Shown: positions 5,252 to 40,880, counted from the stretch's first letter. The stretch is 64,000 nt of DNA from Steroidobacteraceae bacterium (GCA_049584935.1 JBAUYT010000090.1:147-64146), one strand, 5' to 3'. Numbers and translations: made by a program. Notes: generated by a model not told the origin, from the sequence alone.

Positions 5252-5263
5252 TATAACGTTACA
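5252..5263. promoter_or_regulatory. Class-A LacI-type operator candidate (TATAACGTTACA, 1 mismatch to TGTAACGTTACA)
   Basis: Near-palindrome centred on CG, 97 bp upstream of the MFS gene start at 5360. It belongs to a motif seen six times in promoter regions of this window. Confidence 0.5.
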
Positions 5264-5359
5264 TTTAGATTCGACTTTGCCGCCGGTTGCTGTGCTCCCC
5301 ATATGGCGGCCGCAGCCATTCGAGGAGCTATGCTCCGGCTGTCCAAATGAGCACGCTGT

Positions 5360-6520
5360 GTGAAGCAGATCAAAACCATCACCGCGATGAGCGCCTACGC
5401 CATGGCCGGCAACACACCGCTGGTGGTGCAGCCCATGATCGTCGGGGCGCTGGTCGATCTGCGCGGATTCACCGAGCGACAGGCCGGCATTGTTGCAGCT
5501 GTTGAACTCACCGGGCTTACGCTTGGCATCCTCTGCCTGATCGGCGCAGTCGGCCGAGTCAGGCGCTCGAGCTTCGCACTGCTGGCCGTAAGCGCCATTG
5601 TCGCGGCAAACGTAGCGACCTGCTTCGTCAGCCAGTTCCATTGGCTCCTGCCACTGCGATTTCTATCGGGGATCGGCGCCGCGTCCGCTTTCTGCATCTC
5701 CTCGAGTCTGGCCTCCTCGAGTTCCAAGCCGGAGAACAGCTTCGCGATCATGAATGCCATCTGTATCGCCTACTCGGGTGTTTTGACGTTGCTATCTGCC
5801 TCAATCCTGCAGCTCCACGGCCTCCCCGGCATCATGCTGACCCTCTCGTTCATCACGCTGCTGGCGCTGCTGGTGATCCCCTGGATTCCTTCCCAGATGA
5901 TCGGCACCAGGCCATCGGGTGTGGCCAGCGCCAGGGCTAAGGTGCCGTGGGCGATACCCTTGCCGGTTTTGGCGCTGCTGGGCATGATGCTGTTGATCTA
6001 CACCGGACACGGCGCCATCTGGGCCTTCCAGGAAAGAATCGGCATCGCGGCCGGGCTCACCGAGCATGCGGTGGGCAAGTCACTCGGTATGTCGATGCTG
6101 CTGTGGGGTGTGGGTGGATCATTGCTCGCACGGCTACTGAGTCTGTCCCTGGGACGCATCGTGCCGCAGGTGATTTCTCTGGGCGCATCCTGCATCGCCG
6201 TGTTACTACTCGTTTTCGGTACCACGCCAGTCGCCTTCGCAACCTCCTCGGGGTTGATCGCACTGTCCTGGTTCTATGGCCTGCCCTACCAAATGGGTCT
6301 CCTGGCGGCGCATGATCCCAAGGGGCGCGCCGCCCTGGCCGGCACGATGATGTCGACGGCCGGCATGGCTGCGGGGCCAGGCATTGCGGCATTCCTGCTG
6401 GTGGGACACGACCACGGGCCGATCGGTGTGTTCGCGGGCATCTGCTACCTGTGCGCGCTCGCCATTGCCTTGCCCTCGGCCCGCAGCGTCGTGCGCATGG
6501 CGAGTCTGCGCGCCGCCTAG
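5360..6520 (+). CDS. MFS transporter, paralog of 31730..32890
   Basis: 386 aa with about 12 hydrophobic segments. It aligns from the first residues with the MFS at 31730..32890 (VQPMIVGALVD.. versus VQPIIVGALVD..), which supports the GTG start at 5360. Confidence 0.8.
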   Translation: MKQIKTITAMSAYAMAGNTPLVVQPMIVGALVDLRGFTERQAGIVAAVELTGLTLGILCLIGAVGRVRRSSFALLAVSAIVAANVATCFVSQFHWLLPLRFLSGIGAASAFCISSSLASSSSKPENSFAIMNAICIAYSGVLTLLSASILQLHGLPGIMLTLSFITLLALLVIPWIPSQMIGTRPSGVASARAKVPWAIPLPVLALLGMMLLIYTGHGAIWAFQERIGIAAGLTEHAVGKSLGMSMLLWGVGGSLLARLLSLSLGRIVPQVISLGASCIAVLLLVFGTTPVAFATSSGLIALSWFYGLPYQMGLLAAHDPKGRAALAGTMMSTAGMAAGPGIAAFLLVGHDHGPIGVFAGICYLCALAIALPSARSVVRMASLRAA

Positions 6521-6540
6521 GCCCCGCTGTCCGACCTTGA

Positions 6541-7629
6541 TCAGCGGGCGGTGGATTCGCCGATCTGCAGCCGCACGGGCAATACCAAGCGGCGCTTGGC
6601 GAACTCACCATTCTGAAGACGGCCAATCAGCAGTTCGCCGGCATGACGGCCCATTTCATAGGCGGGCGATACCACCGTTGTCAGGGTCGGTGTGGTGAAG
6701 CGCCACACGTCAAACCCGTTGAAGCCTGCGACCATGAGATCCTTGGGCACCCGCCGCCCGGAGAGCTCACAACTCTTCAGGGCAGCGACGGCCATGGAGT
6801 CGGTTGCCCCGACAATGGCATCCGGCGTGCCTTTGGCGAGACAGTCCATCATGACCCGCTGGACATCGTCGAAGCGCTCAGATGCGGCACTCAGCGTCTG
6901 CACCTCGATCGCGGTGCTTGCATGCCCCAGAATGTTCCGCAGCCCGCGTTCGCGCTGTTCGAGCGCGCACCAGTCCAGGGCTGGTCGAACGAAAATCACC
7001 GAGCGGACCTTCTTGCTGAGCAGGTGCTCGCCGAGTTGCATGCCGCCGGAGAGATCATCCTGGCTGATGATTGCGACATTGGGTGCAGGCGACTTGAACA
7101 CTTCCTGAAACACGACAATCGGTTGGCCCAGGCGCTGCAAATTGGCCATATGATCTCGCCGCAGGCTCCGCGGCCCACACAGGATCGCGCACAGCGCCGC
7201 GTTACCCAATTTGGCGAGAATGGTGGCATCGCTGAAACGTTCCGGAGTCACACCCTGTACATCGAGCGTGTAGTCCAGATTGCTCAGATAGTTGCTCAGG
7301 CCGCTCACCAGCCGTGAGATGAACGGATCGTTCAGGAAGGCCGGATCGCTATCGGCGATCACGATGCCAACGGAAGATTCCTCCGACAGGCGCAAACTGC
7401 GCGCACTGCGGTTTGGCCGGTAGTTCAGCAGTGCGATCGCCTGCTCCACTCGTTTCTTGGTCTTGGCCCTGACGGGCTTGCCACGAACGAAGTTCGAGAC
7501 GGTCATCACGGAGACGCCGGCCTTGCGGGCGACATCATTCAGCGTGGCGCGCGCAGGCTTTAGTCCTGCACCAGGCTGGCGCCTGCGTGTGCTCATGCCC
7601 GCTTCCAATTCAGCAACCCGCGAGGCCAT
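6541..7629 (-). CDS. LacI-family transcriptional regulator (LacI-1)
   Basis: N-terminal HTH ATLNDVARKAGVSVMTVSNFVRG is followed by a periplasmic-binding-protein-like sugar-binding domain. It is the last gene of the TonB-receptor operon. The start could also be ATG 7596. Confidence 0.9.
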   Translation of the reverse strand: MASRVAELEAGMSTRRRQPGAGLKPARATLNDVARKAGVSVMTVSNFVRGKPVRAKTKKRVEQAIALLNYRPNRSARSLRLSEESSVGIVIADSDPAFLNDPFISRLVSGLSNYLSNLDYTLDVQGVTPERFSDATILAKLGNAALCAILCGPRSLRRDHMANLQRLGQPIVVFQEVFKSPAPNVAIISQDDLSGGMQLGEHLLSKKVRSVIFVRPALDWCALEQRERGLRNILGHASTAIEVQTLSAASERFDDVQRVMMDCLAKGTPDAIVGATDSMAVAALKSCELSGRRVPKDLMVAGFNGFDVWRFTTPTLTTVVSPAYEMGRHAGELLIGRLQNGEFAKRRLVLPVRLQIGESTAR

Positions 7630-7641
7630 TCAGGCATGGAT

Positions 7642-8433
7642 CTAATCGATCTGCGTAGCGGTGACCGCGCCGTCGATCGTCAGCTCGATGCCGGAGATGT
7701 AGGCGGCTTCCTCCGAGGCCAGGAACAGCACACCTGCGGCGATGTCCTGCGGGCTGCCGAGACGGCGCAGAGGCATCCGCTGAACGAGATCGGCACGAGC
7801 CTGTGCGGGGTCGGGCATGGCATCGAGCACGCGGTCCATGATCGGCGTGTCGATGTAGCCCGGACAGATGCAATTGACTCGAATACCGCTGCTCGCGCCG
7901 TCCTTGGCGAGACAGCGTGACAGCATTATCAGCGCCGCCTTGGTGGAGCAGTACGCCGGTGCGCCGACCCCGCCGACCTGCCCCATCACCGATCCCATGT
8001 TGACGATGTTGCCCGAGCCAGCGGCCTGAAGCGCCGTCCAGGCGGCCTTGCTCATCAGATAGGCGCCGCGAAGGTTGATATTGAAAACGCGCTCCCAATC
8101 GGACAATTCTAGTTCCGCAATGCGCTTGTTCATGTTGATGCCGGCATTGTTCACCAGGACATCGATTCGACCGGCCTCGCTCTGGATGCGCTCAATGCTG
8201 CGCGTGATGTCCGTAGGCATGGAGACGTCCGCAACGATGGCCGTGAAGCGGGTGCCGGCTGCGAGCAGCGCCTGCTCAGTCGCCCGCAGCCCCGCTGCGT
8301 CGACATCCAGCCCAAAGACGCTCGCCCCCTCGTGCGCAAACGCGGTCGCGATACCCTGGCCGATGCCATGGGCTGCGCCGGTCACAATGACTACCTTGCC
8401 ATCAAAGCGATTCGCACGCGTGGATCGCGCCAT
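7642..8433 (-). CDS. Short-chain dehydrogenase/reductase (SDR)
   Basis: Contains the TGAAHGIGQG cofactor motif, NNAG, and the catalytic YCSTK (YxxxK). Confidence 0.9.
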   Translation of the reverse strand: MARSTRANRFDGKVVIVTGAAHGIGQGIATAFAHEGASVFGLDVDAAGLRATEQALLAAGTRFTAIVADVSMPTDITRSIERIQSEAGRIDVLVNNAGINMNKRIAELELSDWERVFNINLRGAYLMSKAAWTALQAAGSGNIVNMGSVMGQVGGVGAPAYCSTKAALIMLSRCLAKDGASSGIRVNCICPGYIDTPIMDRVLDAMPDPAQARADLVQRMPLRRLGSPQDIAAGVLFLASEEAAYISGIELTIDGAVTATQID

Positions 8434-8439
8434 GGCCTG

Positions 8440-10176
8440 CTACTTGGAGGGAAACACGAGATCGGAAAATACAAACATCATGCCTAGGATACCCACCACG
8501 AACCCCGCAGACCATAGGATCACGCTGTCGAGCCTGCCGAGGGTTCCCAGTCCCTCTCGCAGTAGCGCGGCCTTGTCCCACAGCGTGACGGAGGCGGGTT
8601 GAGGTAGTCCCTGCCCGCGCCGCCACCGGCTGCCGAGCAGGCATAGTGCCATCGAGGCCGTCCAGGTGATGGCCGCCTGGTTGGCGAAGGGATAGAACCA
8701 TCCGGGCATCGGCAGGAACACACCAGAGAGCTTGAGTGCAACGCCGAGTGCGAATCCGCCGACGATGGCGGTCATCGCTCCAGTGGCATTGACGTAGCGC
8801 GTAAGCAAACCCAGCACGAAGATCGCCGCGAACGGAGGGGCGAAGAACGCATTGAGTGTCTGCATGTACTGAAAGATGCTGCCGCCGGAGGTACTGAGCC
8901 AAATCGCGATCACGATGCCCAAGACGATGGTCGCGATCGAAGCCCATACGCCGCAGTTCACCTTCTGCCGATCAGTCGCCTGCGGCCGAAACAACGGCAC
9001 ATAGATGTCGATCGTCAGAATGGTGGCGGTCGAGTTTACCACCGAGGTTATGGTCGCCTGCACCGCGCTGAACAGCGCGGCCAGCAGCAGGCCGCGCATG
9101 CCCACCGGCAACAAGTCTTTCACCAGAACGATGTAGCCCTGATCCGCCTGGTGCTGCGCATCGAGCCAGTCGCCGAGCAGGTACTCGGGATGCAGCGCGA
9201 ACAGAATCAGTCCTGGCAACACCGTAATCAGGGGCAGCAGCAGCTTGACGTAGCCTGCGAACACCACTGCCATGCGCGCGTCCCAGATGCTGCGCGATCC
9301 GAAGATGCGTTGGATGATGAACTGGTTGAGCACGTTGTACCAGATGCTCACGGACATGATCAGGAAGAACTGACCCGTCCACGGCGTCAGCGGATGATCC
9401 GGCCTTTGAACTACGGACAGGCGGTTGTAGCTATCAGCCGCCGTGAGGTGGGGACGGATATGCTCGAGCGCCTGGTGCCACACGCCTGAGAGCGCGCGAT
9501 TGCGCTCGATCACTATGTGGAACCCATGAACGATGTTGCCATCGCCACTGACCGCGAGTAGTCCCAGTACGGTGACGGCCGAGGCGCCGGCAAACTTGAC
9601 GACGGCGGTGAATGCGCCAGTCCACGCAACTGACGACAGGCCCCCATAGACCGCCCAGGTACCCGCGAACACGGCTGTCAATATGATGCAGGCAGGCATC
9701 GGCCAGCCGAAGAAGCCGTGCAACGCAAGGCCACCGGTATACAGCACCGCAGCCATGAAGATGACCACGTTGGCGATGACCGTTACGAAGGCGAAGGTCT
9801 GACGCACCGCCGGGCCGTAACGCTGGGCCAGAAATTCCGGGATGGTCACCACCTTCGAAGCCAGCAGAAACGGTACAAAAACGTAGATCATGAACAGGAA
9901 TGTAAAGACGTTCAACCACTCGTAGAGGGCGGGACATACCCCCAGGAGATATGCCGCGCCCACCATGCCGATGAACTGCTCGGTGCTGATGTTTGCCGCA
10001 ATGTAGCTGGCACCGACCACATACCATCGAAGTCTGCGACCGGCCAGAAAATAGTCTGCCGAGGAGGCACGTTCACCGCGTCCAGCAAGAAATCCAACCA
10101 GCGACAGCGCCGCGACGAATAGGAAGAACTCGACATAGTCGAGCATGCTGAGCGAAAGTTGGCTGACTGCTGACAA
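8440..10176 (-). CDS. Sodium:solute symporter (SSS/SGLT family)
   Basis: 578 aa and multi-TM. The N-terminal YFLAGRRLRWYVVGASYIAANISTEQFIGMVG block is typical of SSS transporters. Confidence 0.85.
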   Translation of the reverse strand: MSAVSQLSLSMLDYVEFFLFVAALSLVGFLAGRGERASSADYFLAGRRLRWYVVGASYIAANISTEQFIGMVGAAYLLGVCPALYEWLNVFTFLFMIYVFVPFLLASKVVTIPEFLAQRYGPAVRQTFAFVTVIANVVIFMAAVLYTGGLALHGFFGWPMPACIILTAVFAGTWAVYGGLSSVAWTGAFTAVVKFAGASAVTVLGLLAVSGDGNIVHGFHIVIERNRALSGVWHQALEHIRPHLTAADSYNRLSVVQRPDHPLTPWTGQFFLIMSVSIWYNVLNQFIIQRIFGSRSIWDARMAVVFAGYVKLLLPLITVLPGLILFALHPEYLLGDWLDAQHQADQGYIVLVKDLLPVGMRGLLLAALFSAVQATITSVVNSTATILTIDIYVPLFRPQATDRQKVNCGVWASIATIVLGIVIAIWLSTSGGSIFQYMQTLNAFFAPPFAAIFVLGLLTRYVNATGAMTAIVGGFALGVALKLSGVFLPMPGWFYPFANQAAITWTASMALCLLGSRWRRGQGLPQPASVTLWDKAALLREGLGTLGRLDSVILWSAGFVVGILGMMFVFSDLVFPSK

Positions 10177-10279
10177 AACGCTCTCCTGCCGAGTAGGCCT
10201 GGTGGTGGACGGAGGTTCCGCTCAACCGTTGCGGCGCGAATGCAATTGTTTGCTCAGCGCGGCCCGCACCGAGCGGACA

Positions 10280-11734
10280 TCAGGGCGTCTCTGCAGACTC
10301 TGCCAGCAGTTCCCGCATCGCTTGATCGGCAGCCTCGAGCACCGTTTCCGTCGATCCCTCGCGGTACAGCGCCACGCGCACCGGATAGGCGCCCACTGCG
10401 TAATCCTCCCGCGGCGGCAGATAACTGGCGTAACCGTTGACGATATTGAGCACGGCGACGCTGTTGTGCGGAAATCGGCGGCGCAATTCCAGCTGAAACG
10501 CCGTGTGCATCTCGGCCGGGGTGCCGAGAATGAACGAGTCTCCGAGCTGCCAGATGGTGAAGGAGAAGTCGCCCTCCTTGCCATCGCCCACGGATTCCCG
10601 CGCCAGCAGGCGTCGCGTGAGCCGCTCGATCATGTAGCTCTCGCTGGCCTCTCGGATCTCACGACGCAGTTGCTCGCTGCTCGGCAGATCGGCAATCGCC
10701 AGGCGCACGGTCACGCGACGCGATTTCAGCGTGGTGCTCGACTTGTTCCGCTGCTCCTTCCAGATCGCAAGCGGGGTACCGGACTCTTCCACCCCAGCGT
10801 ATGTCAGAGACACCTGCGGCGGAAACATGGAGGTGAGCACCGACAGTGCCGCGTAACCCACTTCACGGCCGTTCTGGTCCGCGATGGCCGGATCCTGCTC
10901 AAAGCTGCGGCGCGGTGCCTGATTGCCCGACGCGCCGTGCAGGAACACGCACTCCCCGCCGCCGCACCCCGCCTCAACGGTCTCGCGCATGGCGCCGACG
11001 TAATCCGGTGAGATCAGGGTGTTGGCCCCACCGAGCGAAATCGGGTGGCAGGCGTAGTTCACGAACGTGCAGCGTATCTGCCCGGCCCCGTCGACCACAC
11101 GCCCCACCAGCAAGGTATCGTCGGCTTTCGCGGCCGGGTTCAGGCCGCAGAGGATTTGATCCCGGCCCGGTACCGGCAGCTCCCGGTTGAATGCCAGCCC
11201 GCAGTGACCCGCGCGCCACGTCAGGGTTGCCGGCGCCAGCGACGCGCGGGCGCCAGCGACCAGCTCGATGCAGGTCTGCTGCAGCATCTGGCGGTATTGC
11301 GGAATGAGGTGCCCGCCCGGCCGATCGGCAAATTCCAGAGCCGTTCGCGGTGCACTGTGCGTGTGCGAGGGGTGCAACATGAGCTCGTGCTCCTGAAGCC
11401 CCGTTCCTTCGAGAATTGCGGTCCGCAAATCGAGCTCGTCCGGCTTCGAGTTCCACCAGCTCAAATCCAGCGTCAGTAGCACCAGCTGCGTCGTGTGCTG
11501 GCTGTCGGCGAACACCACGCAGGTGGCCAGCAGTGGCTTGTGGATGCCGGTAGCGATATCGTGCTTGGAGCTGCCCCAGGTGCGCGCAAAAATCCCGGGA
11601 GGCGGGTTGATATTTGCTCGCGCCACCCCGACCGCTCCGGCAAACTCCGAGTCGCGCAACTCCAGGGTGTCCCGAGCCGCCACCGGACGACTCGCACCTG
11701 CCGCTGCACGCGGCACAGCACTGAGCTTGCTCAC
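10280..11734 (-). CDS. Ceramidase_alk-like hydrolase paralog P1 (cytoplasmic, short form)
   Basis: 484 aa with a GTG start. Blocks VGVARANINPPPGI, HPSHTHSAP, NYACHPISLGGANTLISPDYVGAMRE and FLHGASGNQAPRRS are shared with four other ORFs in the window. They resemble the metal-site blocks of the neutral/alkaline ceramidase N-terminal domain. No signal peptide is evident. Confidence 0.6.
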   Translation of the reverse strand: MSKLSAVPRAAAGASRPVAARDTLELRDSEFAGAVGVARANINPPPGIFARTWGSSKHDIATGIHKPLLATCVVFADSQHTTQLVLLTLDLSWWNSKPDELDLRTAILEGTGLQEHELMLHPSHTHSAPRTALEFADRPGGHLIPQYRQMLQQTCIELVAGARASLAPATLTWRAGHCGLAFNRELPVPGRDQILCGLNPAAKADDTLLVGRVVDGAGQIRCTFVNYACHPISLGGANTLISPDYVGAMRETVEAGCGGGECVFLHGASGNQAPRRSFEQDPAIADQNGREVGYAALSVLTSMFPPQVSLTYAGVEESGTPLAIWKEQRNKSSTTLKSRRVTVRLAIADLPSSEQLRREIREASESYMIERLTRRLLARESVGDGKEGDFSFTIWQLGDSFILGTPAEMHTAFQLELRRRFPHNSVAVLNIVNGYASYLPPREDYAVGAYPVRVALYREGSTETVLEAADQAMRELLAESAETP

Positions 11735-11782
11735 TGGTTCACCGGCGCAAGGCCTCGAGCTGATGCTCCCGCTGAGGGCTCT

Positions 11783-11819
11783 GCTCGCCCCTCCGGGCAG
11801 AATGCCATGAGGGGCGAGC
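11783..11819 (-). other. Perfect 11-bp inverted repeat (GCTCGCCCCTC / GAGGGGCGAGC) forming a stem-loop between the TonB receptor and P1
   Basis: Read directly from the sequence. The 15-nt loop contains a further GGCA/TGCC pairing. No U-tract follows on either strand. Confidence 0.5.
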
Positions 11820-11847
11820 GTTCGAAAGCATCATTGAGGCCGTTTTC

Positions 11848-14313
11848 TCAGAAGCTCTTGGTGATCTTGATTCCGAAGGTCCTGGGCGCACTCGTGGTAA
11901 TGAACCGCTGTGTGCCTTGAGCGAAGGCTCCGGCGTAATTGCCGGGTCCCCCCGCGGCCTCGTACACGCCAAGCTCGGGAATGGTGTTCGTCAAATTGTT
12001 GACATACCACGTGTACTCCCAATTGTCGTGATCTGCCCAAAATCGCAGATTGGCCTCACCGTACCCGGGCAACAGGTAGTTGGGATCGATGGGTGTGTTG
12101 GTGTTGTTGAAATTCTGGGAACCAACGTATGCATAGTCAAGGCGCGCGGTCGTAGACCATTCCGCGCGAGGATTGAAGGTATAGGCCATTCCCGCCGACA
12201 CCTGAGTCTTGGGCGCGGACTGCAGCGGAGCCCCGACCACCCCAGTCGAGCCCTTGACCACCGATACGATCTTGCCGTCCGCGTACTGCCCGGTGACTTG
12301 AATTTGCCAGTGGTTGGTAAGCGCCGCCCTCACCTCAGCCTCGCTGCCATAAATTCGCGCCGCGCCCGCGTTGCTGACGAACGAGGCGCCGCAGCCGCTT
12401 ACTACTTGATCCAGCTGAATGGTGCTCTGAAGGTTGGTCCAATCCTCGCGGAAACCGCTGATGTTGGCGCTGATCCTGCCGTCATCCCAAGAGGTCTTCA
12501 GGCCGAGCTCGTAGTTCTTCAGGTCGTCGGATTTGAAATTTGCCGTAGAAGCCGCGGTAATGCCGAATATCTTCAACGCCGCGGCGCAACCTGGCGTGCT
12601 GTAATTACCGGTGGGATTGTCACCGCCGATGCGGAAACCCTCCGAGTAGGTCGCATAGAAATTGACGTCCTTGGTCACCGCGTAGGTCAAGGTGGCTCGA
12701 GGCACGGTCTTGCTCTCCTGCACCGGCTCGTGAATGACGCTGTTACCCGTGGGCGGGGCACTGGCGAAATAGTCGCTGAAGTCGATGCGCGTCGAGACCA
12801 CGCTCTGATTCGAGTAGCGCAGCCCGCCGGCGAGCGCCAGATCGGGTGTGAGGTGAAGGGTGACGTCTCCGAAAAAGGCGCGATCGGAGTAGGTGGAGGA
12901 ATACTGGCCGGACCAAACTGTGTCGGTGCCACTATTCGGCGCTGTCAGCGGAGCCACTGCGTCGGTGAGCCATGCTGGACCCACCGTCACATTACCAAAG
13001 GCGTCGCGCTCTTCCTTCTGAAAGAAGCCGCCGACGGTCCAGTCGAGACCCGATCCGCTCCAGAGAAGATCCTTCTCTTCCCCCTGCAGGCGCAGTTCCT
13101 GGCTCAGCAGGCGGGTGTCCACATTGAAGGTCAACGGCGCCGGACTCGGCAAGGGCACGATTCCGTTGCCACCGAGCGCCCCATAGGTGATTCCGGCAAA
13201 GTCGGTATTGTTGCTGTAGCTGCGATCGGTCCAGCCGGTAATCGAATGCAGCGACGCGAAGCCGAAATCGTAGGTCATATTCAGTGATGCCAATGAATAG
13301 TTCGTGTTCTCCGGCTGGAGCTGGAACTGATTGGCGAGCAGAGGGCTGCCGGACCCAGTGGATACGTCAGGTTCGTAGAACGGCTGCGAGTCAGTTGACT
13401 TGGCATCGTACAAGAAGGACGCAGTCGCCTCGAACTGGTCGTTCGGCTTGAACCTCAGTGCGACCTTGCCCCCAGCCGCCTGGCTCTTGTTGACGTCCTT
13501 GAGATACTCCCCATAGCCATAAGTTTGCGCCTGCTCGGAGTTGAATCCGACCAGCACGTTAGGACCGTAGACGTCTTTCGGATTGCCCGTCAGAAGATGG
13601 ACGTTGAGGTAGCCCGGATCCTGGGTTTCGTAAAACGAAAAGCGCAGCGCCAGGACGTCAGACAAGGGACTGTTCACAGTCAGGGAGGTGGTATAACCGA
13701 CGTTGTTGGCGCCCCAGCCGCTGTCGAGCACGGACAGGCCGCCGGATAAGTTCGCCGTGAATTCGTTGAACTGCGGCGCGTTCGGCACAATTTTAACCAG
13801 CCCTCCCATGGCGGCCGCACCGTATAGGGTACCTTGCGGCCCCTCCAGGACCTCGACGCGCTGCGTATCGACCAGCTGCGGATCCAGGGCGTACGCTGGC
13901 ACCTCGCCATAAACGTAGCCGGTAGTGGCCGTCGCGACGTTGGTTTCGAAATCGCCGAGACGGGAATTGGAGATGCCGCGGATGACGATGTTGGGACCGG
14001 AACGCTCGCCGCCCAACCCTTCACCGCTGTAGATAAGCCCCGGTACGAATTTCGCGTAGTCGGTCAGATCCTGCAGCCCCTGCTGCTCGAGATCGGCACC
14101 GCTGAATACCGCCATCGTGACCGGTACGTCCTTGGCATTTTCCTCGCGCTTCTGCGCGGTCACTATGACCTCCTCCAGCTGCGGGCCTTCCGCGCCCGCG
14201 ACCTGCGCATTGGCAGATCCATGCGGCGCCAGCAGGCCGACGGCCGTACAAGTCACCAGCAACCCCGGAAGTCCTCGAACCGGTGCACCACTTTCGGACG
14301 ATATCGCGCTCAT
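11848..14313 (-). CDS. TonB-dependent outer-membrane receptor
   Basis: 821 aa. It has a signal peptide ending ANAQ and the plug region EEVIVTAQKREENAKDVPVTMAVF. It also has RVEVLEGPQGTLYG and the C-terminal ...GIKITKSF (terminal Phe). A strong GGGAGGA SD precedes the ATG. Confidence 0.92.
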   Translation of the reverse strand: MSAISSESGAPVRGLPGLLVTCTAVGLLAPHGSANAQVAGAEGPQLEEVIVTAQKREENAKDVPVTMAVFSGADLEQQGLQDLTDYAKFVPGLIYSGEGLGGERSGPNIVIRGISNSRLGDFETNVATATTGYVYGEVPAYALDPQLVDTQRVEVLEGPQGTLYGAAAMGGLVKIVPNAPQFNEFTANLSGGLSVLDSGWGANNVGYTTSLTVNSPLSDVLALRFSFYETQDPGYLNVHLLTGNPKDVYGPNVLVGFNSEQAQTYGYGEYLKDVNKSQAAGGKVALRFKPNDQFEATASFLYDAKSTDSQPFYEPDVSTGSGSPLLANQFQLQPENTNYSLASLNMTYDFGFASLHSITGWTDRSYSNNTDFAGITYGALGGNGIVPLPSPAPLTFNVDTRLLSQELRLQGEEKDLLWSGSGLDWTVGGFFQKEERDAFGNVTVGPAWLTDAVAPLTAPNSGTDTVWSGQYSSTYSDRAFFGDVTLHLTPDLALAGGLRYSNQSVVSTRIDFSDYFASAPPTGNSVIHEPVQESKTVPRATLTYAVTKDVNFYATYSEGFRIGGDNPTGNYSTPGCAAALKIFGITAASTANFKSDDLKNYELGLKTSWDDGRISANISGFREDWTNLQSTIQLDQVVSGCGASFVSNAGAARIYGSEAEVRAALTNHWQIQVTGQYADGKIVSVVKGSTGVVGAPLQSAPKTQVSAGMAYTFNPRAEWSTTARLDYAYVGSQNFNNTNTPIDPNYLLPGYGEANLRFWADHDNWEYTWYVNNLTNTIPELGVYEAAGGPGNYAGAFAQGTQRFITTSAPRTFGIKITKSF

Positions 14314-14360
14314 GGCTACAGTTTCCTCCCTCGGGAATATTAGTCGCAGATCAGTTTCTA

Positions 14361-16007: not shown

Positions 16008-16014
16008 GCGCAGC

Positions 16015-33046: not shown

Positions 33047-33628
33047 TCACGCCTGCTTGACTCGCGCAGAGCTTGGCGTGCCGATGGTGGTTGCGTCGAC
33101 GATGGTGCCATTCTCGATTTGAATGCCGCTGCGCCGCAATTGTTCGGTAACCTGCGAGGCCAGCTTCTTTTCCAGTCGCTTGCGCTGCAGCAGATCTCGA
33201 AACCGGCCGATCACCGTAGCATCCGGTGCCGCCTCCACCACCAGATCGATGCGGGCGAATTCACGCATCGCCGCGGAATCGTACAGCGATTCTTCGACCG
33301 CCAGATCCGACAGGTTGAACCACAGCTGCAGAAAGTAGATACGCAGCATGCGCTCGAGCCATCGCGGCGCGGGCGCGTCTTCTCCCTCGAGCTGCACGCA
33401 GTACGGTTGCACCTGCTCCGCCATGCGGGCCCAGGGCACCATCCAGTCCATATCAGCGAGAAACTGCGCCCGGCGTGTCACGCGGCCGTATCGTTCCAAT
33501 CCGCTGAGCTTCTGCCGCTGCATGTTCATGCGCAGCCGCGACCGGTGGGATAGATAAATGGGATTCGCGGGATTCGCAGGCAACCGAGCAACCGATACAC
33601 GTGACATGTCGCGCCTCCGCAGGACCAT
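33047..33628 (-). pseudogene. IS5-family transposase remnant (N-terminal third only)
   Basis: ...RRAQFLADMDWMVPWARMAEQVQPY...RMLRIYFLQLWFNLSDLAVEESLYDSAAMREFARIDL...GTIVDATTIGTPSS matches the conserved N-terminal region of IS5-group transposases. It stops where the DDE catalytic domain should begin. Confidence 0.75.
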
Positions 33629-33969: not shown

Positions 33970-34133
33970 ATTCGAGCCTGCAAACGACTCCGGGCGCACT
34001 CCGGAGGCCCGCTCAAGACTGCGCTGCGCTGTCATCATGAGCGTGTCCAACCCCCCACAGGCGGGGCCGGGGCGTGTCCATGCCGAGCGACTCCGCCGCG
34101 CGCGAATCGGCCCGCCGGGTCCCAGGAGGCTGC

Positions 34134-35159
34134 ATGTCTTTGGCTGGTCATGGCTGGTGCGACATTGATTTCGACGCCGATGGTAAGCGCGTAGACCACC
34201 TGTTCATTCCCCATTCTGTCGACCGCTCGGCCTACGGCAACGTGGGCATCCCGATCGTTGTGATCAAGAATGGTGACGGACCGACCATTCTGCTCACCGG
34301 CGGAACTCACGGGGACGAATTCGAAGGGCAAATCGTTGCGACGCGGGTAGCCCGCGCCATAGAGCCGGCTGCGATACGCGGCCAGCTGATCGTCATACCG
34401 TGCCTGAATTTCCCCGCCGCGACCAGCGGCACGCGGGTGTCGCCGCTGGATGGCGGTAACCTGAATCGCGCCTTCCCAGGCGACCCGCGCGGCGGTGTAA
34501 CCCAGCAGCTTGCGCATTATCTGCATACTGTGCTTATGCCGATGGCCGACGTCATGATCGACGTCCATTCCGGTGGCGCATCCCTGGAATATCTGCCCAC
34601 GGCATTCACCAATCTGTCCGGCAACAGCGAGCTCGATCGCGCCGCGGTGAAGGCGATGCGGGTATTCGGTGCGCCGCTGTCAATGCTATTTCGGGATGAC
34701 AGCGAGGCCCGCCGTGCCGTCAGCTCGGCGCACCTCAATGACTGCCTCTATTTCGCCACCGAGATGGGGGGCGCTGGTACCGTCGGAGTCGATGCACTCG
34801 CAATCGCGCACGCGGGCACGGCGCGTCTGCTGCAACACTTCGGGCTGCTGCGGCGCATCGACGCCTTGCAGCCGATCAGGGAGGCCGAGCGCACCCGCTT
34901 CGTCCAGGTACCGAGCCGCTCCTACCAGGTGCACGCCGCGGCAATGGGCATCTTTGAACCGGTCTTCAGGCTCGGCCACCAGGTGAAGGTTGGCCAGCTG
35001 GCCGGGCTCACTTACAGCCAGTACGAGCCCACGCGCCAGCCGAGCGCGAGTTATTTCCAGGCCGACGGCTTCGTGATCTGCCGCCGCCATCCCGGACTGG
35101 TACAGCCTGGGGACTGTCTCGCGCACGTCGCGGTGGATTTCGACGTTGCCGGTCTATGA
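34134..35159 (+). CDS. Succinylglutamate desuccinylase/aspartoacylase (AstE/AspA, M14-like) family deacylase
   Basis: Contains LLTGGTHGDEFEGQ (Zn-binding HxxE block), NLNRAFPG and IDVHSGG. ATG 34134 is preceded by AGGAGG. Confidence 0.8.
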   Translation: MSLAGHGWCDIDFDADGKRVDHLFIPHSVDRSAYGNVGIPIVVIKNGDGPTILLTGGTHGDEFEGQIVATRVARAIEPAAIRGQLIVIPCLNFPAATSGTRVSPLDGGNLNRAFPGDPRGGVTQQLAHYLHTVLMPMADVMIDVHSGGASLEYLPTAFTNLSGNSELDRAAVKAMRVFGAPLSMLFRDDSEARRAVSSAHLNDCLYFATEMGGAGTVGVDALAIAHAGTARLLQHFGLLRRIDALQPIREAERTRFVQVPSRSYQVHAAAMGIFEPVFRLGHQVKVGQLAGLTYSQYEPTRQPSASYFQADGFVICRRHPGLVQPGDCLAHVAVDFDVAGL

Positions 35160-35222
35160 GCTCGGCACCTCGCGGGCGAGTACGCTGAGGCAAGTCGGCA
35201 TTGATGTAAGGAGCAAGCAGAA

Positions 35223-36620
35223 ATGTCAGCTGAGTCGACGATAACCCTTTCCAACCCCGAGTTTCGCGGACGCATCGGGGTCGCTCGGACGGTTATTACA
35301 CCACCGGTCGGTATATACGCGCGCCTATGGGGTAGCGCGGCGCACGATGTGGCCGAGGGTGTACATCGGCCTTGCTATGCCAGCTGCCTGGTGTTCCAGG
35401 ACGACTCGGGAGGCAATGAGCTGGTGCTGCTCGCTCTTGACGCCTGCATCCTGGCGCAAGAAGAAGTGATGCGCATGACCGCCGCGATCCAGGCCGGCTG
35501 TGGTCTCGCACCGGGACAATTGATCATTCACCCTTCGCATTCCCACAGCGTCCCGTCCTACGTCAGGAAACATGCCGATCGTCCCGGTGGTCACCTGATC
35601 GCACCCTATCTGGATGCCCTGCCCGCGCTCTGCCAGGGCCTCATCAGGGACGCACGGTCTGCAGCCACCGAGTCCACGTTGAGCTGGACGTACGGTCACT
35701 GCGGCCTGGCCTACAACCGCGACTTCATTGATCCAGCCAATGGCCGGGAGGTGTGCGGGCTCAATCTTCTTGCCAAGGCCGACGACACACTGCTGGTCGG
35801 GCGCGTGACCGACCGCACCGGCAAGGTCACGGCCACCATCGTGAACTATGCCTGCCACCCGGTCTCGCTGGGAGGCGCCAATCGATTGATCTCTCCAGAT
35901 TACGTTGGCGCGATGCGTGAGACCGTTGAAAAGCACACCGCGGGGGCAATCTGCGTCTTCTTCCACGGACCGTCGGGAGATCTGACTCCCAGACGCAGCT
36001 ATGAGGCGGACGTCGCGGTTCCCGACCAGAACGGTCGCGAACTGGGTTACGCCGCATTGTCCGCCCTGACCTCGATGTTCCCCCCGGGACAACAGCTGCA
36101 GTACCAGGGGATCGAGGAATCTGGCACCGCCCTGGGCGTGTGGCGGCTGTGTCCCAAGCCGAGCGTCAACAGGGCGATCTCCGCGGAGCGCATGACCACC
36201 AGGCTGCCGCTCAAGCAGATGCCAAGCCGTGCCGCCATCGAGCTGCAGCTCAAAAGTGCCACCGAACGCTATGAAATCGAGCGGCTGGAGCGAACGCTTG
36301 GCCGGCGTGAGCTGGCTGGTGAAGGCACGCAGGGAGAGTTCTACCTCAACGTTTGGCGCCTGGGCGATGCCTTCCTCGTGCTGGTGCCGGCTGAGGCCTA
36401 CAGCCAGCTGCAACTCGATCTGCGCGCACGTCACCCGGACGCCGCGGTGGCCGTGTTGAACCTGGCAAGCGGTACGTTCATGTACCTGCCTCCGCGGACG
36501 TCTTACCAGCGGCCAGATGTCTATCCGGTGCGGGTGGCGCTTTACGAATCAGGCTCGCTGGAGCAAATCGCAGCTCTGGCCGCCGATTCCATCGATCGAC
36601 TGGAGGCAGATACGCCATGA
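35223..36620 (+). CDS. Ceramidase_alk-like hydrolase paralog P4
   Basis: Contains IGVARTVITPPVGI, HPSHSHSVP, NYACHPVSLGGANRLISPDYVGAMRE and FFHGPSGDLTPRRSY. A strong AAGGAG SD is present. Confidence 0.6.
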   Translation: MSAESTITLSNPEFRGRIGVARTVITPPVGIYARLWGSAAHDVAEGVHRPCYASCLVFQDDSGGNELVLLALDACILAQEEVMRMTAAIQAGCGLAPGQLIIHPSHSHSVPSYVRKHADRPGGHLIAPYLDALPALCQGLIRDARSAATESTLSWTYGHCGLAYNRDFIDPANGREVCGLNLLAKADDTLLVGRVTDRTGKVTATIVNYACHPVSLGGANRLISPDYVGAMRETVEKHTAGAICVFFHGPSGDLTPRRSYEADVAVPDQNGRELGYAALSALTSMFPPGQQLQYQGIEESGTALGVWRLCPKPSVNRAISAERMTTRLPLKQMPSRAAIELQLKSATERYEIERLERTLGRRELAGEGTQGEFYLNVWRLGDAFLVLVPAEAYSQLQLDLRARHPDAAVAVLNLASGTFMYLPPRTSYQRPDVYPVRVALYESGSLEQIAALAADSIDRLEADTP

Positions 36621-37813
36621 ATATTCATCCCCTGGCGAGCGCACTGGCACCGGATCTGACCGCCTGGCGCCGCGCGCTGCACGCCCATCCGGAACTCGGG
36701 TTCGAGGAGCGGTGGACTTCGGATTTCGTGGCCGAGAAGCTCTCCGGCTGGGGCATCCCGATCCAACGCGGCCTCGCGGGCACAGGCGTGGTGGCTACTT
36801 TGAACGGTCGGGGCCATGCGAGCTGCGCCATCGGGCTGCGGGCCGATCTGGACGCACTGCCGATCCAGGAACTCAACGAATTTGCGCATGCCTCGCAACA
36901 TCCGGGGCGCATGCACGCATGCGGTCACGATGGGCATACCGCGATGTTATTGGGCGCCGCCTATTGTCTGGCCCGCGATCCCAGCTTCTCCGGTACCGTT
37001 CATTTCATCTTTCAGCCGGGGGAGGAGGGCTGCGGCGGCGCCGAGCGCATGGTCAAGGAAGGTTTGTTCGAGCAAAACCCGTGTAACGCAGTGTACGGCC
37101 TGCACAACTGGCCGGCGCTCAAATTTGGAATGATGGGATTGCGCGTCGGACCGCTGCTGGCCTCAATGGACCTGATAGAGATTCTCGTCCGGGGCCGGGG
37201 CGGCCACGGCGCCCTGCCCCACACGACCATCGACCCCATCGTGACCTCAGCGCACATCGTGACAGCCTTGCAGACCCTGGTCAGCCGCTCCACCAAGCCG
37301 ACCGATGCGGCCGTTGTAAGCATCACCTGCATACAGGGAGGCACGGCGCATAACGTCATCCCTGAAACCGTTCGCATGCTCGGCACCGTCCGCAGTTTCA
37401 CGCCAAGCGTCCGCAATGCGCTGGAAGCGGGCATCAGACAGATCGCGGAAGGTGTGGCTCGCAGTTTCGGCGCATCTGCGACCGTGCAATACACCCGTCT
37501 GGCCTCCGCCGTGGTGAATTCGGCTGACGAAGCACGCCTGGCGGCGAGTGCAGCTGCCGCGGTGCTTGGGGCAGATCAGGTGCTGGACCCGATGGAACTG
37601 GTAATGGGATCCGAAGATTTCTCGTTCCTGGTTGCAGACCGCCCCGGTGCCTATGTGTTCCTGGGCCAGGCCGACGCTCCGAATCCGAGCATGATCCACA
37701 ACGCGACCTATGACTTCGACGACAAGCTGCTGCCGATCGGCGTCAGCTACTGGATCAAACTGGTCGAGCAGGCGCTGCCGTTGTCTTCCCGCCAGCGGCC
37801 GATCGCGCCGTGA
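36617..37813 (+). CDS. M20D-family amidohydrolase (N-acyl-amino acid / hippurate hydrolase-like)
   Basis: Contains LHAHPELGFEE, LRADLDALPI, MHACGHDGH and FQPGEEG. ATGA overlap with P4. Confidence 0.88.
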   Translation: MNIHPLASALAPDLTAWRRALHAHPELGFEERWTSDFVAEKLSGWGIPIQRGLAGTGVVATLNGRGHASCAIGLRADLDALPIQELNEFAHASQHPGRMHACGHDGHTAMLLGAAYCLARDPSFSGTVHFIFQPGEEGCGGAERMVKEGLFEQNPCNAVYGLHNWPALKFGMMGLRVGPLLASMDLIEILVRGRGGHGALPHTTIDPIVTSAHIVTALQTLVSRSTKPTDAAVVSITCIQGGTAHNVIPETVRMLGTVRSFTPSVRNALEAGIRQIAEGVARSFGASATVQYTRLASAVVNSADEARLAASAAAAVLGADQVLDPMELVMGSEDFSFLVADRPGAYVFLGQADAPNPSMIHNATYDFDDKLLPIGVSYWIKLVEQALPLSSRQRPIAP

Positions 37814-38898
37814 CCGGTTCCGTTCAGAGCCCCGCCGGCAGCCTCGCCTTCAGCGGCGCGGTGGGTGTGACGGTACCGGCCACGCAGGTCCTCTGGTATG
37901 ACCGACTGCTCGATCCGGCGCGCTTCCCTTCGGAAGGCTATTGGGCTTTCTGCCGCTTCGAAAGCGACGCCATTCCAGCCGTGCGGTTGGGCTTTCAGCG
38001 CGGCGGTTTCAACGCGGGGCCGAAACCGTGCAAGCTCAATCCCTCCTATCTGCAGCTGCATCTGGAAGTGATGACGCGCGAGGGTGCGCTGCTGTGGCTG
38101 CCGTCCGGGGTTTATCCGGCCGAACGGGTGGAGTCGGCACCCACCGCATTCAATATCCGGCTCGCAGACACCGACCATGAGATCTTCGAATTCAGTGGCT
38201 GGCCGCAAATCCAGTGCCGGTTCCGTTCCGAGGACCGGTATCTCGAAGTGGATCTGGGCTTCGATCTGGGCAGCGTGACGGTGCTACCCGACGGCATCCT
38301 GCCGCATTGCGTGTTCGCCATGTTCGAGTCCATGGGCAATGTCCAGGGTACCATTCGTTCAGGCGGGCAAGTCACTGCCGTGCGCGGCAAGGCCTTCGTC
38401 GATCACACACGGATCATCGAGCAGCGAAACCCCGTCGTCGCACGACAGATGTCGTTGTATACGACCCTGTACTTCGAGGATGGCAGCGGCCTGTATGGCT
38501 ATTACGCCGTCGATGCAAACGATCGACCGATTGCAGAGTACTGCTTCGGGGTCTTTCTGAATCCGGACGGACAAGGTCGATTTTTCGCCGACGCGACTTT
38601 AACGCAGCTGGCCCTGGATGAGGACCGCATCGCCAAAAGCTGGCGACTGCGGTATCGAATGGATGACGGCGCCGTCGAGATAGCGATCACTGTCAGGCCG
38701 CAGCCGATCCTGCGGTGTTGGGGATCGCCCACGGCACCTCAACGACGCGACCAATTCAGCATTTTGCCGCTGGTCCTGGACAGCCTCGCGCAATTTGTCG
38801 GCGCCGATGGCACCAACAGAACACTGCGAGGCATCGGCCTGTCCGAGTATTACGACCGGGAACTGTGGCCGATCGATCCGCTGGCGCGCCTGGATTGA
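37810..38898 (+). CDS. Hypothetical protein, no recognisable motif
   Basis: 362-aa ORF with codon usage like its neighbours. Its GTG start overlaps the M20 stop (GTGA), so it is probably translationally coupled. I cannot assign a family by eye. Confidence 0.6.
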   Translation: MTGSVQSPAGSLAFSGAVGVTVPATQVLWYDRLLDPARFPSEGYWAFCRFESDAIPAVRLGFQRGGFNAGPKPCKLNPSYLQLHLEVMTREGALLWLPSGVYPAERVESAPTAFNIRLADTDHEIFEFSGWPQIQCRFRSEDRYLEVDLGFDLGSVTVLPDGILPHCVFAMFESMGNVQGTIRSGGQVTAVRGKAFVDHTRIIEQRNPVVARQMSLYTTLYFEDGSGLYGYYAVDANDRPIAEYCFGVFLNPDGQGRFFADATLTQLALDEDRIAKSWRLRYRMDDGAVEIAITVRPQPILRCWGSPTAPQRRDQFSILPLVLDSLAQFVGADGTNRTLRGIGLSEYYDRELWPIDPLARLD

Positions 38899-38928: not shown

Positions 38929-39759
38929 TCAGGCAAAACTCTTGATGCCGCTGCCCTCGAGCAACAGCCCCGCGGCCCGGTCGGTGATCGATCGATGCAG
39001 GGCTACGAATTCGGGTTCAAAGTCGGACGCCGGGCGTGGTTCGTGCTCGAAGCGGCAGACTGCATCGCGGCCCCGAACCAGGGTGGCACTGTCCTTTCCA
39101 TGCAGCTGGTATACCGAACTCGGCAGATAGCGAATCGCGAACCCGATTCTGCGCGCCGGCGACCTGTTCGGCGGTGAGCCATGAATCAGCCGGAGATGAT
39201 GCAGCGACATTTCGCCAGGCTGCAGTTCGAGCGTAACCGCCTGGCGCGAGTCAACGGCTACCTCCACCTCCTGGCCTCGAATCAGCAGGTTATCCCTCGA
39301 GGGCCGGTCCGTGTGCGGTATCTGATCGAGCAAATGGGTGCCGGGAATGACCTGCATGGCGCCACTCTCAGCCGTGCTGGCCGACAGAGCCACCCAGGCA
39401 GTGACGGACTCCGGCTTCGATAATCCCCAGTAGGTGGAATCCTGATGCCAGGACACGAAGGCCGGATCATTCGCTTCCTTGATGAAAAAATTGGTGGTCC
39501 AGCAAAGCAGATCAACACCGTACAGGTCCTCCACCGCATCCAGGATTCTCTGCTCGCGGATCAGATCGTTCAGCCAGCTGAAAAGCAGGTGGCTCTTGTG
39601 TCGCTGCACGCCGTGGAGCGGTCTGCCGCTGGTAGTCTCGAATCTCTCCAGGCGCGCTCGCAGCTCGGCCGCCTGCTCTGCGCCAATAACCCTGATGGGT
39701 GCGATAAAGCCCGATTGCTGGAATTGCGCGATTTGTTCCGCTGTCAACAACTTGCGCAT
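38929..39759 (-). CDS. Phytanoyl-CoA dioxygenase (PhyH) family Fe(II)/2-oxoglutarate oxygenase
   Basis: The N-terminus LTAEQIAQFQQSGFI, the WHQDSTYW (HxD) block and the distal His in LHHLRLIHGSPPN, then R.G... are typical of PhyH-family proteins. Confidence 0.8.
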   Translation of the reverse strand: MRKLLTAEQIAQFQQSGFIAPIRVIGAEQAAELRARLERFETTSGRPLHGVQRHKSHLLFSWLNDLIREQRILDAVEDLYGVDLLCWTTNFFIKEANDPAFVSWHQDSTYWGLSKPESVTAWVALSASTAESGAMQVIPGTHLLDQIPHTDRPSRDNLLIRGQEVEVAVDSRQAVTLELQPGEMSLHHLRLIHGSPPNRSPARRIGFAIRYLPSSVYQLHGKDSATLVRGRDAVCRFEHEPRPASDFEPEFVALHRSITDRAAGLLLEGSGIKSFA

Positions 39760-39797
39760 ACGCGGCTCTCATCACTGCACGGCGCCCGACTATATAA

Positions 39798-39809
39798 TGT
39801 AACGTCACA
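39798..39809. promoter_or_regulatory. Class-A operator candidate TGTAACGTCACA (1 mismatch), abutting a TATAAT box
   Basis: Lies in the 83-bp divergent region between the PhyH and NHL genes. TATAAT at 39793..39798 shares its final T with the first base of the site. Confidence 0.5.
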
Positions 39810-39842
39810 CCAAACAATTGGATCGGCAGACAGAGCACGGCC

Positions 39843-40811
39843 ATGGCGCAACTCGGCACTCAGCCATTCTGCTACGTCGTCGAGCCGGACTGGGGGCGGC
39901 TGCCGGACGGCCTGATCGTGGGTGATGTTGCCGGAATAGCGATCGACGGCAACGACAACGTCTATATATTCAATCGCGGCGACCATCCAATGATCGTGCT
40001 CGACCGGCACGGATCGATCATTCGTACCTGGGGCGAGGGAGTCTTCACCCGCCCACATGGCGTTCACGTCGGCCACGATGGCTACGTCTACTGCACCGAT
40101 GATGGCGACCATACGGTACGCAAGTTCACGGTCACGGGTGTTGCATTGTTGCAAATTGGCATTGTCCGGCAGGCTGCCACGGCAATGAGTGGAAATCCGT
40201 TCAACCGCTGCACGCACACGGCACTGGCTCCTGGTGGAGAAATTTATATAAGTGACGGTTATGGCAACGCACACGTTCACCTCTATTCAGCCGATGGCCG
40301 GCATCTGCGTACCTGGGGTGGCGGTGGATCTGAACCCGGTCAATTCAATCTCCCGCACAACATCTGCTGTGACGAGGACGGCTGGGTCTATGTCGCCGAT
40401 CGGGAGAACAACCGCGTGCAGATCTTCGACGGTCGCGGACAATTCGAGACCCAATGGACCGGACTGCGCCGTCCCTGCGCCATGTGCATCGAGCCACGCC
40501 GGCGAGGCAACCTGTACATCGGTGAGCTGGCTGTCTTCTGCCCGCTCGAGCTGCTGCCAGTGGATGAGGGACCCCGCCTCAGCGTCATTGCACGAGATGG
40601 ACACATAGAAGCCAGGCTCGGAGGCCGCGGACCTGGCCTGTCACCTACGGAGTTGTTCGCGCCACACGGCATTGCCGTGGACTCTCTCGGCAATATCTTT
40701 CTCGGTGAGGTCATTGCAGCCACCTGGGGGCATTATTTTCCAGGTCGGTCCCTGCCCGCCAAAATAAAGGCCTTTCGCAAACTGACCAGAGTGTCCGCCA
40801 CATCATTTTGA
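39843..40811 (+). CDS. NHL-repeat beta-propeller protein, peptidyl-alpha-hydroxyglycine alpha-amidating lyase (PAL)-like
   Basis: It has repeated units: GIAIDGNDNVYIFNRG.H, PHGVHVGHDGYVYCTDDGDHTVRKF, ISDGYGNAHVHLY, and PHNICCDEDGWVYVADRENNRVQIF. This resembles the PAL/NHL six-blade pattern. Confidence 0.65.
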   Translation: MAQLGTQPFCYVVEPDWGRLPDGLIVGDVAGIAIDGNDNVYIFNRGDHPMIVLDRHGSIIRTWGEGVFTRPHGVHVGHDGYVYCTDDGDHTVRKFTVTGVALLQIGIVRQAATAMSGNPFNRCTHTALAPGGEIYISDGYGNAHVHLYSADGRHLRTWGGGGSEPGQFNLPHNICCDEDGWVYVADRENNRVQIFDGRGQFETQWTGLRRPCAMCIEPRRRGNLYIGELAVFCPLELLPVDEGPRLSVIARDGHIEARLGGRGPGLSPTELFAPHGIAVDSLGNIFLGEVIAATWGHYFPGRSLPAKIKAFRKLTRVSATSF

Positions 40812-40868
40812 GGCCATCGTCCGCGCCCAAATGAGCAGCCCCGCAGCCAGCCGCGGAGGTTTGCGTCT

Positions 40869-40880
40869 TGTAACGTTACA
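40869..40880. promoter_or_regulatory. Class-A operator candidate, perfect palindrome TGTAACGTTACA
   Basis: Lies 107 bp upstream of the hydantoinase A ATG at 40987. Confidence 0.6.

Follow-up and report, generated by a model that had tools for sequence, protein, structure and literature searches.

A 64,000-nucleotide stretch of DNA from a Steroidobacteraceae bacterium (GCA_049584935.1 JBAUYT010000090.1:147-64146), referred to below as the window, carries repeated copies of the 12-bp palindrome TGTAACGTTACA and encodes a LacI-family regulator, LacI-1 (6541–7629, minus strand), that we propose as its reader. The initial annotation had placed three exact copies of the palindrome and three with one mismatch in this DNA, and a pattern search allowing ≤1 mismatch returned precisely these six in the 64-kb window, beginning at 5252, 14361, 14455, 14593, 39798 and 40869. 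Its naming of the gene products concerned (MFS, LacI, TonB-dependent receptor, class III aminotransferase, PhyH, NHL and hydantoinase A) was borne out by Pfam.

Three of the copies fall within 317 bp, in the control region between two divergent gene strings. O1 (14361–14372) is exact and ends 47 bp 5′ of the start codon of the TonB-dependent receptor gene, which together with genes for a ceramidase-like amidase (Cer1), a Na+/solute symporter and a glucose-1-dehydrogenase-like SDR makes up the first predicted target operon (operon 1; 7642–14313, minus strand; Pfam and NCBIfam). The minus-strand string has gaps of 113, 103, 6 and 45 bp, the last of which precedes lacI-1, its final gene. O3 (14593–14604), likewise exact, ends 26 bp 5′ of the start codon of a class III aminotransferase gene (HemL/GntE-like) in the second predicted target operon (operon 2; 14631–26764, plus strand), whose other genes encode an aldose 1-epimerase, an SMP-30 lactonase, a galactonate-dehydratase-family enzyme, a second ceramidase-like protein (Cer2), two further enolase-superfamily enzymes, an SDR and the 2-oxoacid dehydrogenase components E1alpha, E1beta and E2. 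At the mid-point of the control region stands O2 (14455–14466), an imperfect copy (TGTAACGTAACA) whose distances to the start codons on either side are 141 and 164 bp; the upstream distance of 34–110 bp originally given for every copy fails for this one.

The remaining copies lie at some distance on either side. A one-mismatch copy (TATAACGTTACA, 5252–5263) separates MFS-1, a transporter gene with a weak Pfam MFS_1 match (5360–6520, plus strand; called as 386 aa; 96 bp from the site), from a divergent amino-acid permease gene (3621–5096, minus strand; 155 bp). The initial annotation left this permease gene unmentioned. The copy at 5252 falls inside a promoter-like match, TTGTCA-16-TACATT, found at 5238–5265 by a consensus scan. 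Another one-mismatch copy (TGTAACGTCACA, 39798–39809) is shared by divergent genes for a PhyH-family dioxygenase (38929–39759, minus strand; Pfam; 38 bp) and an NHL-repeat protein (39843–40811, plus strand; Pfam; 33 bp), and it adjoins a TATAAT hexamer at 39793–39798. The last copy (40869–40880) is exact and lies 106 bp 5′ of hyuA, in front of a string that also comprises hyuB (caprolactamase/oxoprolinase-like), Cer5 and an SDR gene (40987–47025, plus strand).

This distribution departs sharply from chance. Six matches compare with a shuffle expectation of 0.03, and none of 100 dinucleotide-preserving shuffles reached six; because the window is 63.5% G+C, so AT-rich a 12-mer would seldom arise at random. 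The window contains no copies with two mismatches and only five scattered matches with three, so the set is discrete and sharply bounded rather than the tail of a distribution. By crude open reading frame (ORF) calls ~91% of the window is coding, and the chance that all six copies would be intergenic is ~5e-7.

We collected related loci in two ways. Set 1 comprises 21 loci from species-representative genomes recovered by alignment to LacI-1 homologues, the genomes being metagenome-assembled genomes (MAGs) of Steroidobacteraceae, Woeseiaceae and other Gammaproteobacteria; set 2 comprises 80 metagenome loci recovered by aminotransferase alignment, so that their selection was independent of LacI. 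At ≤1 mismatch, set 1 holds 37 copies in 344 kb and set 2 holds 100 in 921 kb. These 137 further copies, in 1.27 Mb, include none within homology-aligned coding sequence, which accounts for 41% of the DNA. Eleven of 43 sites had been flagged as inside crude longest ORFs; over-extended starts explained each case, and these sites lie outside homology-aligned protein regions.

When window proteins were mapped onto the related loci by tblastn, the sites were found 5′ of orthologues of the same genes: the aminotransferase (57 sites), the TonB receptor (22), Cer1, MFS-1, SSF, PhyH and the hyuA operon, with a median of 65 bp between the end of the site and the start codon. The region upstream of the aminotransferase is the most conserved position, and the pairing of site and gene persists although gene order varies greatly among loci. 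The five-gene order of operon 1 plus lacI-1 recurs in eight loci (L001–L003, L006, L022, L023, L042 and L044), and the order of operon 2 is identical throughout in L023. Linkage of a site to MFS-1 is retained in L002, L022 and L023; the orthologues in L022 and L023 keep the TATAACGTTACA variant, and that in L002 has an exact site. An exact site also lies close 5′ of the PhyH orthologue in L096. Linkage to hyuAB is retained in L012 and L014, in which an exact site precedes a FAA-hydrolase/hyuA/hyuB/amidohydrolase string adjoining lacI-1, and the regulon membership of the NHL gene is based on the window. Related loci additionally carry genes of the FAA-hydrolase, sugar-transporter and fatty-acid-desaturase families.

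Conservation is confined to the palindrome itself. Among 43 aligned sites the flanks contribute 0–0.3 bits per position outside the 12-mer, which indicates selection on the 12 bases alone, and in an alignment of the control region with the three closest relatives (L022–L024; mean identity 71%) the three operators form fully conserved islands. Judged from these comparisons, the sites are non-random and under strong purifying selection at orthologous promoters. In L021, tblastn breaks up each of the orthologues of lacI-1, SMP-30 and the TonB receptor into two or three segments (10048–10998, 11961–12862 and 13484–15561), which may reflect frameshifts, due either to assembly errors or to pseudogenes; all three operators of this locus are still exact.

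Recurrence of a perfect palindrome in intergenic DNA would also be seen with a repetitive extragenic palindromic (REP)-like or mobile repeat, with an RNA hairpin or terminator, or with a restriction-modification palindrome, and the initial annotation had itself named a dispersed REP-type repeat as the finding that would overturn a regulatory role. We consider a non-regulatory origin exceedingly improbable. Flanks of ~0 bits exclude a mobile repeat or a REP-like one, whose units measure ~20–40 bp or more and have conserved flanks, and the copies stand at orthologous promoters despite rearranged gene order, 5′ of genes and not 3′. They form no stable fold and are confined to the promoters of one functional gene set: the six regions of the window fold no better than shuffles (z from -1.7 to +1.2; best minimum free energy -4.7 kcal/mol), and a terminator scan found nothing at the sites. 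Typical restriction sites are shorter than twelve specified bases.

The pattern of substitutions shows which bases of the palindrome matter. The motif is an even palindrome, TGTAAC/GTTACA, whose central C6 and G7 are invariant in 143/143 sites. Eighty-two of these 143 are perfect; the 61 mismatches are concentrated at half-site positions 2 (28) and 4 (30), which together account for 58, and the rest fall at position 1 (one) and position 5 (two), with none at positions 3 and 6. The resulting read-out, T-n-T-n-A-C/G-T-n-A-n-A, appears as expected for base-specific reading of half-site positions 1, 3, 5 and 6. The commonest variant is that of O2, TGTAACGTAACA, or its reverse complement TGTTACGTTACA, which make up 24/143 sites, and it occupies the same middle position in L022–L024, L031, L042, L044, L049, L051–L053, L056 and L057. 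At the loci of the most distant LacI-1 orthologues (L019 and L020, both Woeseiaceae MAGs, and L063, L064 and L100), the sites are mostly TGTAACGTTAAA or TTTAACGTTACA, a change of G to T at half-site position 2, with an unchanged recognition helix; position 2 would thus seem to be read weakly.

Two further features of the DNA around the sites deserve mention. To the right of O2, the block at 14467–14492 (TCTTTGAACTGTCAACGGTC...) is near-invariant in the four closest relatives, far past the 12-mer, and includes TTGA-N4-TCAA, a small inverted repeat; the block could serve as a promoter element or be bound by a second protein. A single perfect half-site, TGTAACG, lies at 48682–48688, 56 bp 5′ of an amidohydrolase gene (47034–48626, minus strand) whose orthologue in L012 and L014 belongs to the operator-controlled hyuA operon; this half-site may represent a weak operator or the remnant of one.

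LacI-1, which had been singled out as the LacI gene that ends the TonB-receptor string, proved to be a complete regulator of this family. Its LacI-type helix-turn-helix (HTH) occupies residues 29–73 of the 362-aa ORF (Pfam PF00356, E = 4.8e-16) and is accompanied by a type I periplasmic-binding-protein effector domain (Pfam Peripla_BP_3, Peripla_BP_1 and Peripla_BP_4); the product is called as 351 aa, with its start at 7596, and an identical 351-aa product is recorded on metagenome contigs. The protein is alignable over its full length with structures of CelR-like 5ysz, CcpA, RbsR, PurR and LacI. All hosts are uncultured, the closest named relatives being Steroidobacteraceae MAGs. Across orthologues ranging from 97% to ~50% identity, the recognition helix GVS[VI]MTVSN[FV]V and the hinge YRPNxSARxLR are invariant, and hinge residues A65, R66, L68, R69 and L70 do not vary among 26 orthologues. 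The LacI-1 hinge NRSARSLRL aligns with NAVARGLAS of CcpA so that the hinge leucine positions coincide, this leucine being the residue that in LacI-family proteins inserts into the central CpG of the operator. By sequence comparison, then, the invariance of the predicted DNA-reading residues parallels that of the operator motif. NCBIfam scores place LacI-1 far under the RbsR, PurR and Cra cut-offs, so it is orthologous to none of these proteins.

Alignment of LacI-1 to LacI covers residues 4–324, where LacI-1 stops; the tetramerization helix is thus missing and a dimer is expected. The spacing among the three operators of the control region varies from ~70 to ~420 bp across relatives, and this variability and the missing helix together favor operators that are occupied independently over a fixed loop.

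The presence of sites follows the presence of LacI-1, as would be expected of the regulator that the initial annotation proposed as their reader. With duplicates removed, set 2 has sites in 12/12 loci with a LacI-1 orthologue and in 3/18 loci that lack one and extend ≥5 kb on each side, giving a Fisher p of 1e-5, a value that is optimistic in that the loci are phylogenetically related and their independence is overstated. In at least eight loci (L010, L015, L016, L018, L021, L065, L091 and L101), the lacI-1 and aminotransferase genes are divergent, with a site between them. Autoregulation, advanced from the start as the simplest interpretation, is supported more directly in these loci than in the window, where operon membership suggests it. 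The comparison proposed at the outset, whether related genomes keep the palindrome, likewise gave a positive answer: dozens of uncultured genomes, differing in gene order, retain it in front of the corresponding orthologues. Some loci scored as siteless have a degenerate copy just 5′ of the aminotransferase with one half-site perfect, such as TGTAACGTTGCC in L040.

A different arrangement is found in ~20 loci (L067, L072–L075, L077–L090, L092–L095 and L097–L099), where an SSF/Cer/aminotransferase operon stands beside genes for an OprB porin, a xylose-isomerase-like TIM-barrel protein and a glucose/sorbosone dehydrogenase. Neither LacI-1 nor any palindrome was found there in ~21 kb per locus; evidently another lineage controls this pair of enzymes in a different way.

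Beyond the relatedness of the loci, several observations weigh against LacI-1 as the reader and repressor of these sites. No site was found in the available DNA of six loci that encode a LacI-1 homologue with an identical HTH (L003, L005, L006, L007, L011 and L013), and for L005 and L011 the search covered 10 kb per side; neither target linkage nor autoregulation is therefore universal. Conversely, three aminotransferase loci have sites and no LacI-1 within 5–10 kb. In the window, no operator lies immediately 5′ of lacI-1, so autoregulation there relies on presumed read-through across gaps of 45–113 bp. A consensus promoter scan returned no match in 14250–14700 and only two in 5000–14700, no more than in shuffles, and a single operator coincides with a promoter-like match; because the scan does no better than shuffles, the case for overlap of operators and promoters rests on start-codon distances.

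The loci in which site and gene part company could mean that the palindrome is a true transcription-factor site read by another protein, be it a second LacI-family protein encoded in the window (LacI-2; 26729–27760, minus strand), the MocR/GntR-type regulator at 1981–3624 or an unlinked regulator common to these lineages. GntR-family proteins also use palindromes, of the GT-N6-AC type. Yet homologues of the other regulators encoded in the window (LacI-2, MocR and LysR) were not detected across the 101 related loci, the recognition helix of LacI-2 (VAVSSVSRAF) differs from that of LacI-1 (VSVMTVSNFV), and the motif tracks LacI-1, down to the sites between divergent lacI-1 and target genes in at least eight loci. 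MocR-type regulators are described with operator sites of their own, through which they control pyridoxal phosphate, γ-aminobutyric acid and taurine genes (PMC5320631). We therefore regard another reader as unlikely. LacI-2 has an intact, in-frame HTH (KGIRAVAQRAGVAVSSVSRAF...); from the upstream stop (27869–27871) to the codon at 27568 there is no ATG, GTG or TTG, and the only plausible start is a CTG at 27758–27760. The gene either relies on a rare start codon or no longer has its start. Its region overlaps the longest ORF of a divergent gene at 27654–29366.

Taken with the family-typical form of the motif, these results make TGTAACGTTACA very probably the operator of LacI-1. The initial annotation had recognized a CG-centered palindrome as the LacI-family form, and this matches the even, CG-centered palindromes that constitute 1173/1303 LacI-family motifs (Ravcheev et al. 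2014, PMC4052901). The local catabolic regulons of LacI/GalR proteins compiled in RegPrecise-type work share further traits with the present one: sites tens to ~140 bp upstream of genes, a regulator that is clustered with its targets and autoregulated, and targets that are transporters and catabolic enzymes (PMC4052901). Operators of the family are seldom found in coding sequence, and their typical range of 30–140 bp holds for five of the six sites in the window, O2 lying beyond it at ~150–175 bp. As predicted from sequence, form, position, regulator clustering and autoregulation thus match those of hundreds of local LacI-family regulons known from comparative genomics (PMC4052901). The present group differs in coming from uncultured Steroidobacteraceae-like Gammaproteobacteria, in having an informative core of only 12 bp, and in targets that form no recognizable sugar pathway and instead include a HemL-like aminotransferase, neutral-ceramidase-like amidases and a caprolactamase-like enzyme. 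A literature search for the operator sequence in a bacterial context found no report; the matches concerned the rewiring of yeast GAL genes and, for a 10-mer core, human keratin, and were irrelevant.

Individual family members offer closer comparisons. The operators of Cra (FruR), RbsR and PurR in Enterobacteria have half-sites of the xGAAAC/GTTTCx type. Like them, the present palindrome has six bases per half ending in AAC/GTT, in the same register to the central CpG, and its TGTAAC differs at one position from the Cra half-site TGAAAC; the base at half-site position 4, the effectors and the regulons are all different. The catabolite-responsive CcpA, whose chains are the closest solved relatives of LacI-1 after 5ysz, has the cre consensus TGWAANCGNTNWCA, and the HTH and hinge of the two proteins align closely (CcpA VSMATVSRVVNG, LacI-1 VSVMTVSNFVRG). 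Both cre and the present site open with TGTAA and are CG-centered, but cre is 14 bp long, with one base more per half-site, which puts the two TGTAA blocks in different registers. CcpA moreover acts as a global regulator and requires HPr-Ser-P as corepressor. Catabolite control of the CcpA/cre kind was rejected on the length of the site, 12 bp rather than 14, and on the score of LacI-1 with the CcpA model TIGR01481, 121 bits against a 442-bit cut-off. The three operators for one repressor in one control region recall O1, O2 and O3 of the Escherichia coli lac operon; in contrast to E. coli LacI, LacI-1 is without the C-terminal tetramerization helix needed for looping.

We infer DNA binding, repression rather than activation, dimeric stoichiometry and co-transcription of lacI-1 with the receptor operon from the position of the sites and the makeup of the protein. 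A LacI-1 dimer would place one HTH on each TGTAAC half-site and its hinge helices over the central CpG, and in so doing would block transcription of at least five or six units comprising ~24 genes. The repressed genes would provide outer- and inner-membrane uptake and catabolism of a nitrogen-containing, carbohydrate-like substrate, and the substrate or a breakdown intermediate would bind the sugar-binding-type core of LacI-1 and release it from DNA. Because lacI-1 closes a repressed operon, it would also repress itself, and autoregulation is common in the family, most members of which bind DNA in the ligand-free state (PMC4052901).

The same binding could instead make LacI-1 an activator or dual regulator, as CcpA, Cra and PckR partly are; dual regulators with a global role do occur in the LacI family (PMC4052901). 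O2, at 141–164 bp from both starts, is placed compatibly with activation. Four of the six operators in the window, by contrast, end 26–47 bp before a start codon, which leaves room for a 5′ untranslated region only, so that they must overlap or follow the promoter. With the overlap of one site with the TTGTCA-16-TACATT match and the TATAAT hexamer adjoining another, their position favors steric repression, and the ligand-free binding typical of the family points the same way. LacI-1 could act as an activator at the distal middle site and is unlikely to do so at the promoter-proximal sites; for the regulon as a whole we hold activation to be highly unlikely, and repression by LacI-1 remains our preferred reading.

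The gene set points to a nitrogen-containing, carbohydrate-like substrate: an outer-membrane receptor and two or three inner-membrane transporters are combined with zinc amidases related to neutral ceramidase, a HemL-like transaminase, a group of mutarotase, dehydrogenase, lactonase and dehydratase, and a caprolactamase-like ATP-dependent hydrolase. Naming of the substrate by NCBIfam equivalogs was attempted, and only the galactonate-dehydratase-family model scored over its cut-off (318.6 against 311); the aminotransferase, the SDRs, PhyH, NHL and hyuA all fell under theirs, so no substrate was assigned. A literature search for a described pathway joining a ceramidase, an aminotransferase, a TonB receptor and LacI found nothing relevant. 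One tentative and rather doubtful proposal is that the regulon serves an undescribed catabolic route, widespread among Gammaproteobacteria of soil and peat, whose starting compound is carbohydrate-like and either N-acylated or aminated in some other way; candidates include N-acyl amino-deoxy sugars from microbial cell-surface polymers. Such a route would begin with uptake through the TonB-dependent receptor and de-acylation by new, multi-copy, short neutral-ceramidase-like zinc amidases, and would proceed through de-amination by the HemL-like class III aminotransferase to non-phosphorylative oxidation by the lactonase, sugar-acid dehydratase and FAH-hydrolase. LacI-1 would then sense a nitrogenous or sugar-acid intermediate and no classical sugar.

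The ceramidase-like proteins form a group of five Cer paralogues, encoded at 10280–11734 (minus), 19085–20506 (plus), 30326–31714 (minus), 35223–36620 (plus) and 44806–46245 (plus). They are ~470 aa long, 28–50% identical and distant relatives of the neutral ceramidase catalytic domain (PDB 2zws, E = 9e-7). An H-x-H-S metal motif, here H-T-H-S, and a C-H-P motif are invariant among them; no NCBIfam model covers them, and their Pfam matches are mostly under cut-off. Genes of the Cer type are consistently linked to a class III aminotransferase in hundreds of metagenome contigs.

Some neighboring genes stand apart from the predicted regulon or at its edge. A string at 34074–38898, comprising AstE, ceramidase-like, M20 peptidase and unknown genes, is without an operator, and a short DUF772 transposase ORF (33047–33628, minus strand) lies directly 5′ of it. 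In L002, the orthologues of the M20 and unknown genes are divergent from MFS-1, with an exact operator in between. An insertion or rearrangement may have uncoupled the genes at 34074–38898 from the regulon in this genome. At the other end, the MocR-type regulator gene (1981–3624, plus strand; GntR HTH with an aminotransferase-like domain) is tail-to-tail with the amino-acid permease gene at 3621–5096, the 3′ ends overlapping by 4 bp. Divergent from MFS-1, the permease gene has the operator region at 5252 in common with it; control by LacI-1 and by MocR are both conceivable.

For the LacI family, whose workings are well understood, these findings add one more orthologous group and its operator, with no change to how the family is thought to work. 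For the organism, the motif would join ~24 genes spread over 42 kb (5.2–47 kb) into one co-regulated unit, and would do likewise in dozens of uncultured soil and peat genomes. It offers a principled way to delimit an uncharacterized set of uptake and catabolic genes, in which a TonB receptor and a HemL-like transaminase stand alongside ceramidase-like amidases, sugar-acid enzymes and a lactamase-like enzyme. The motif also opens a route to the substrate, which would be expected to be the inducer of LacI-1.

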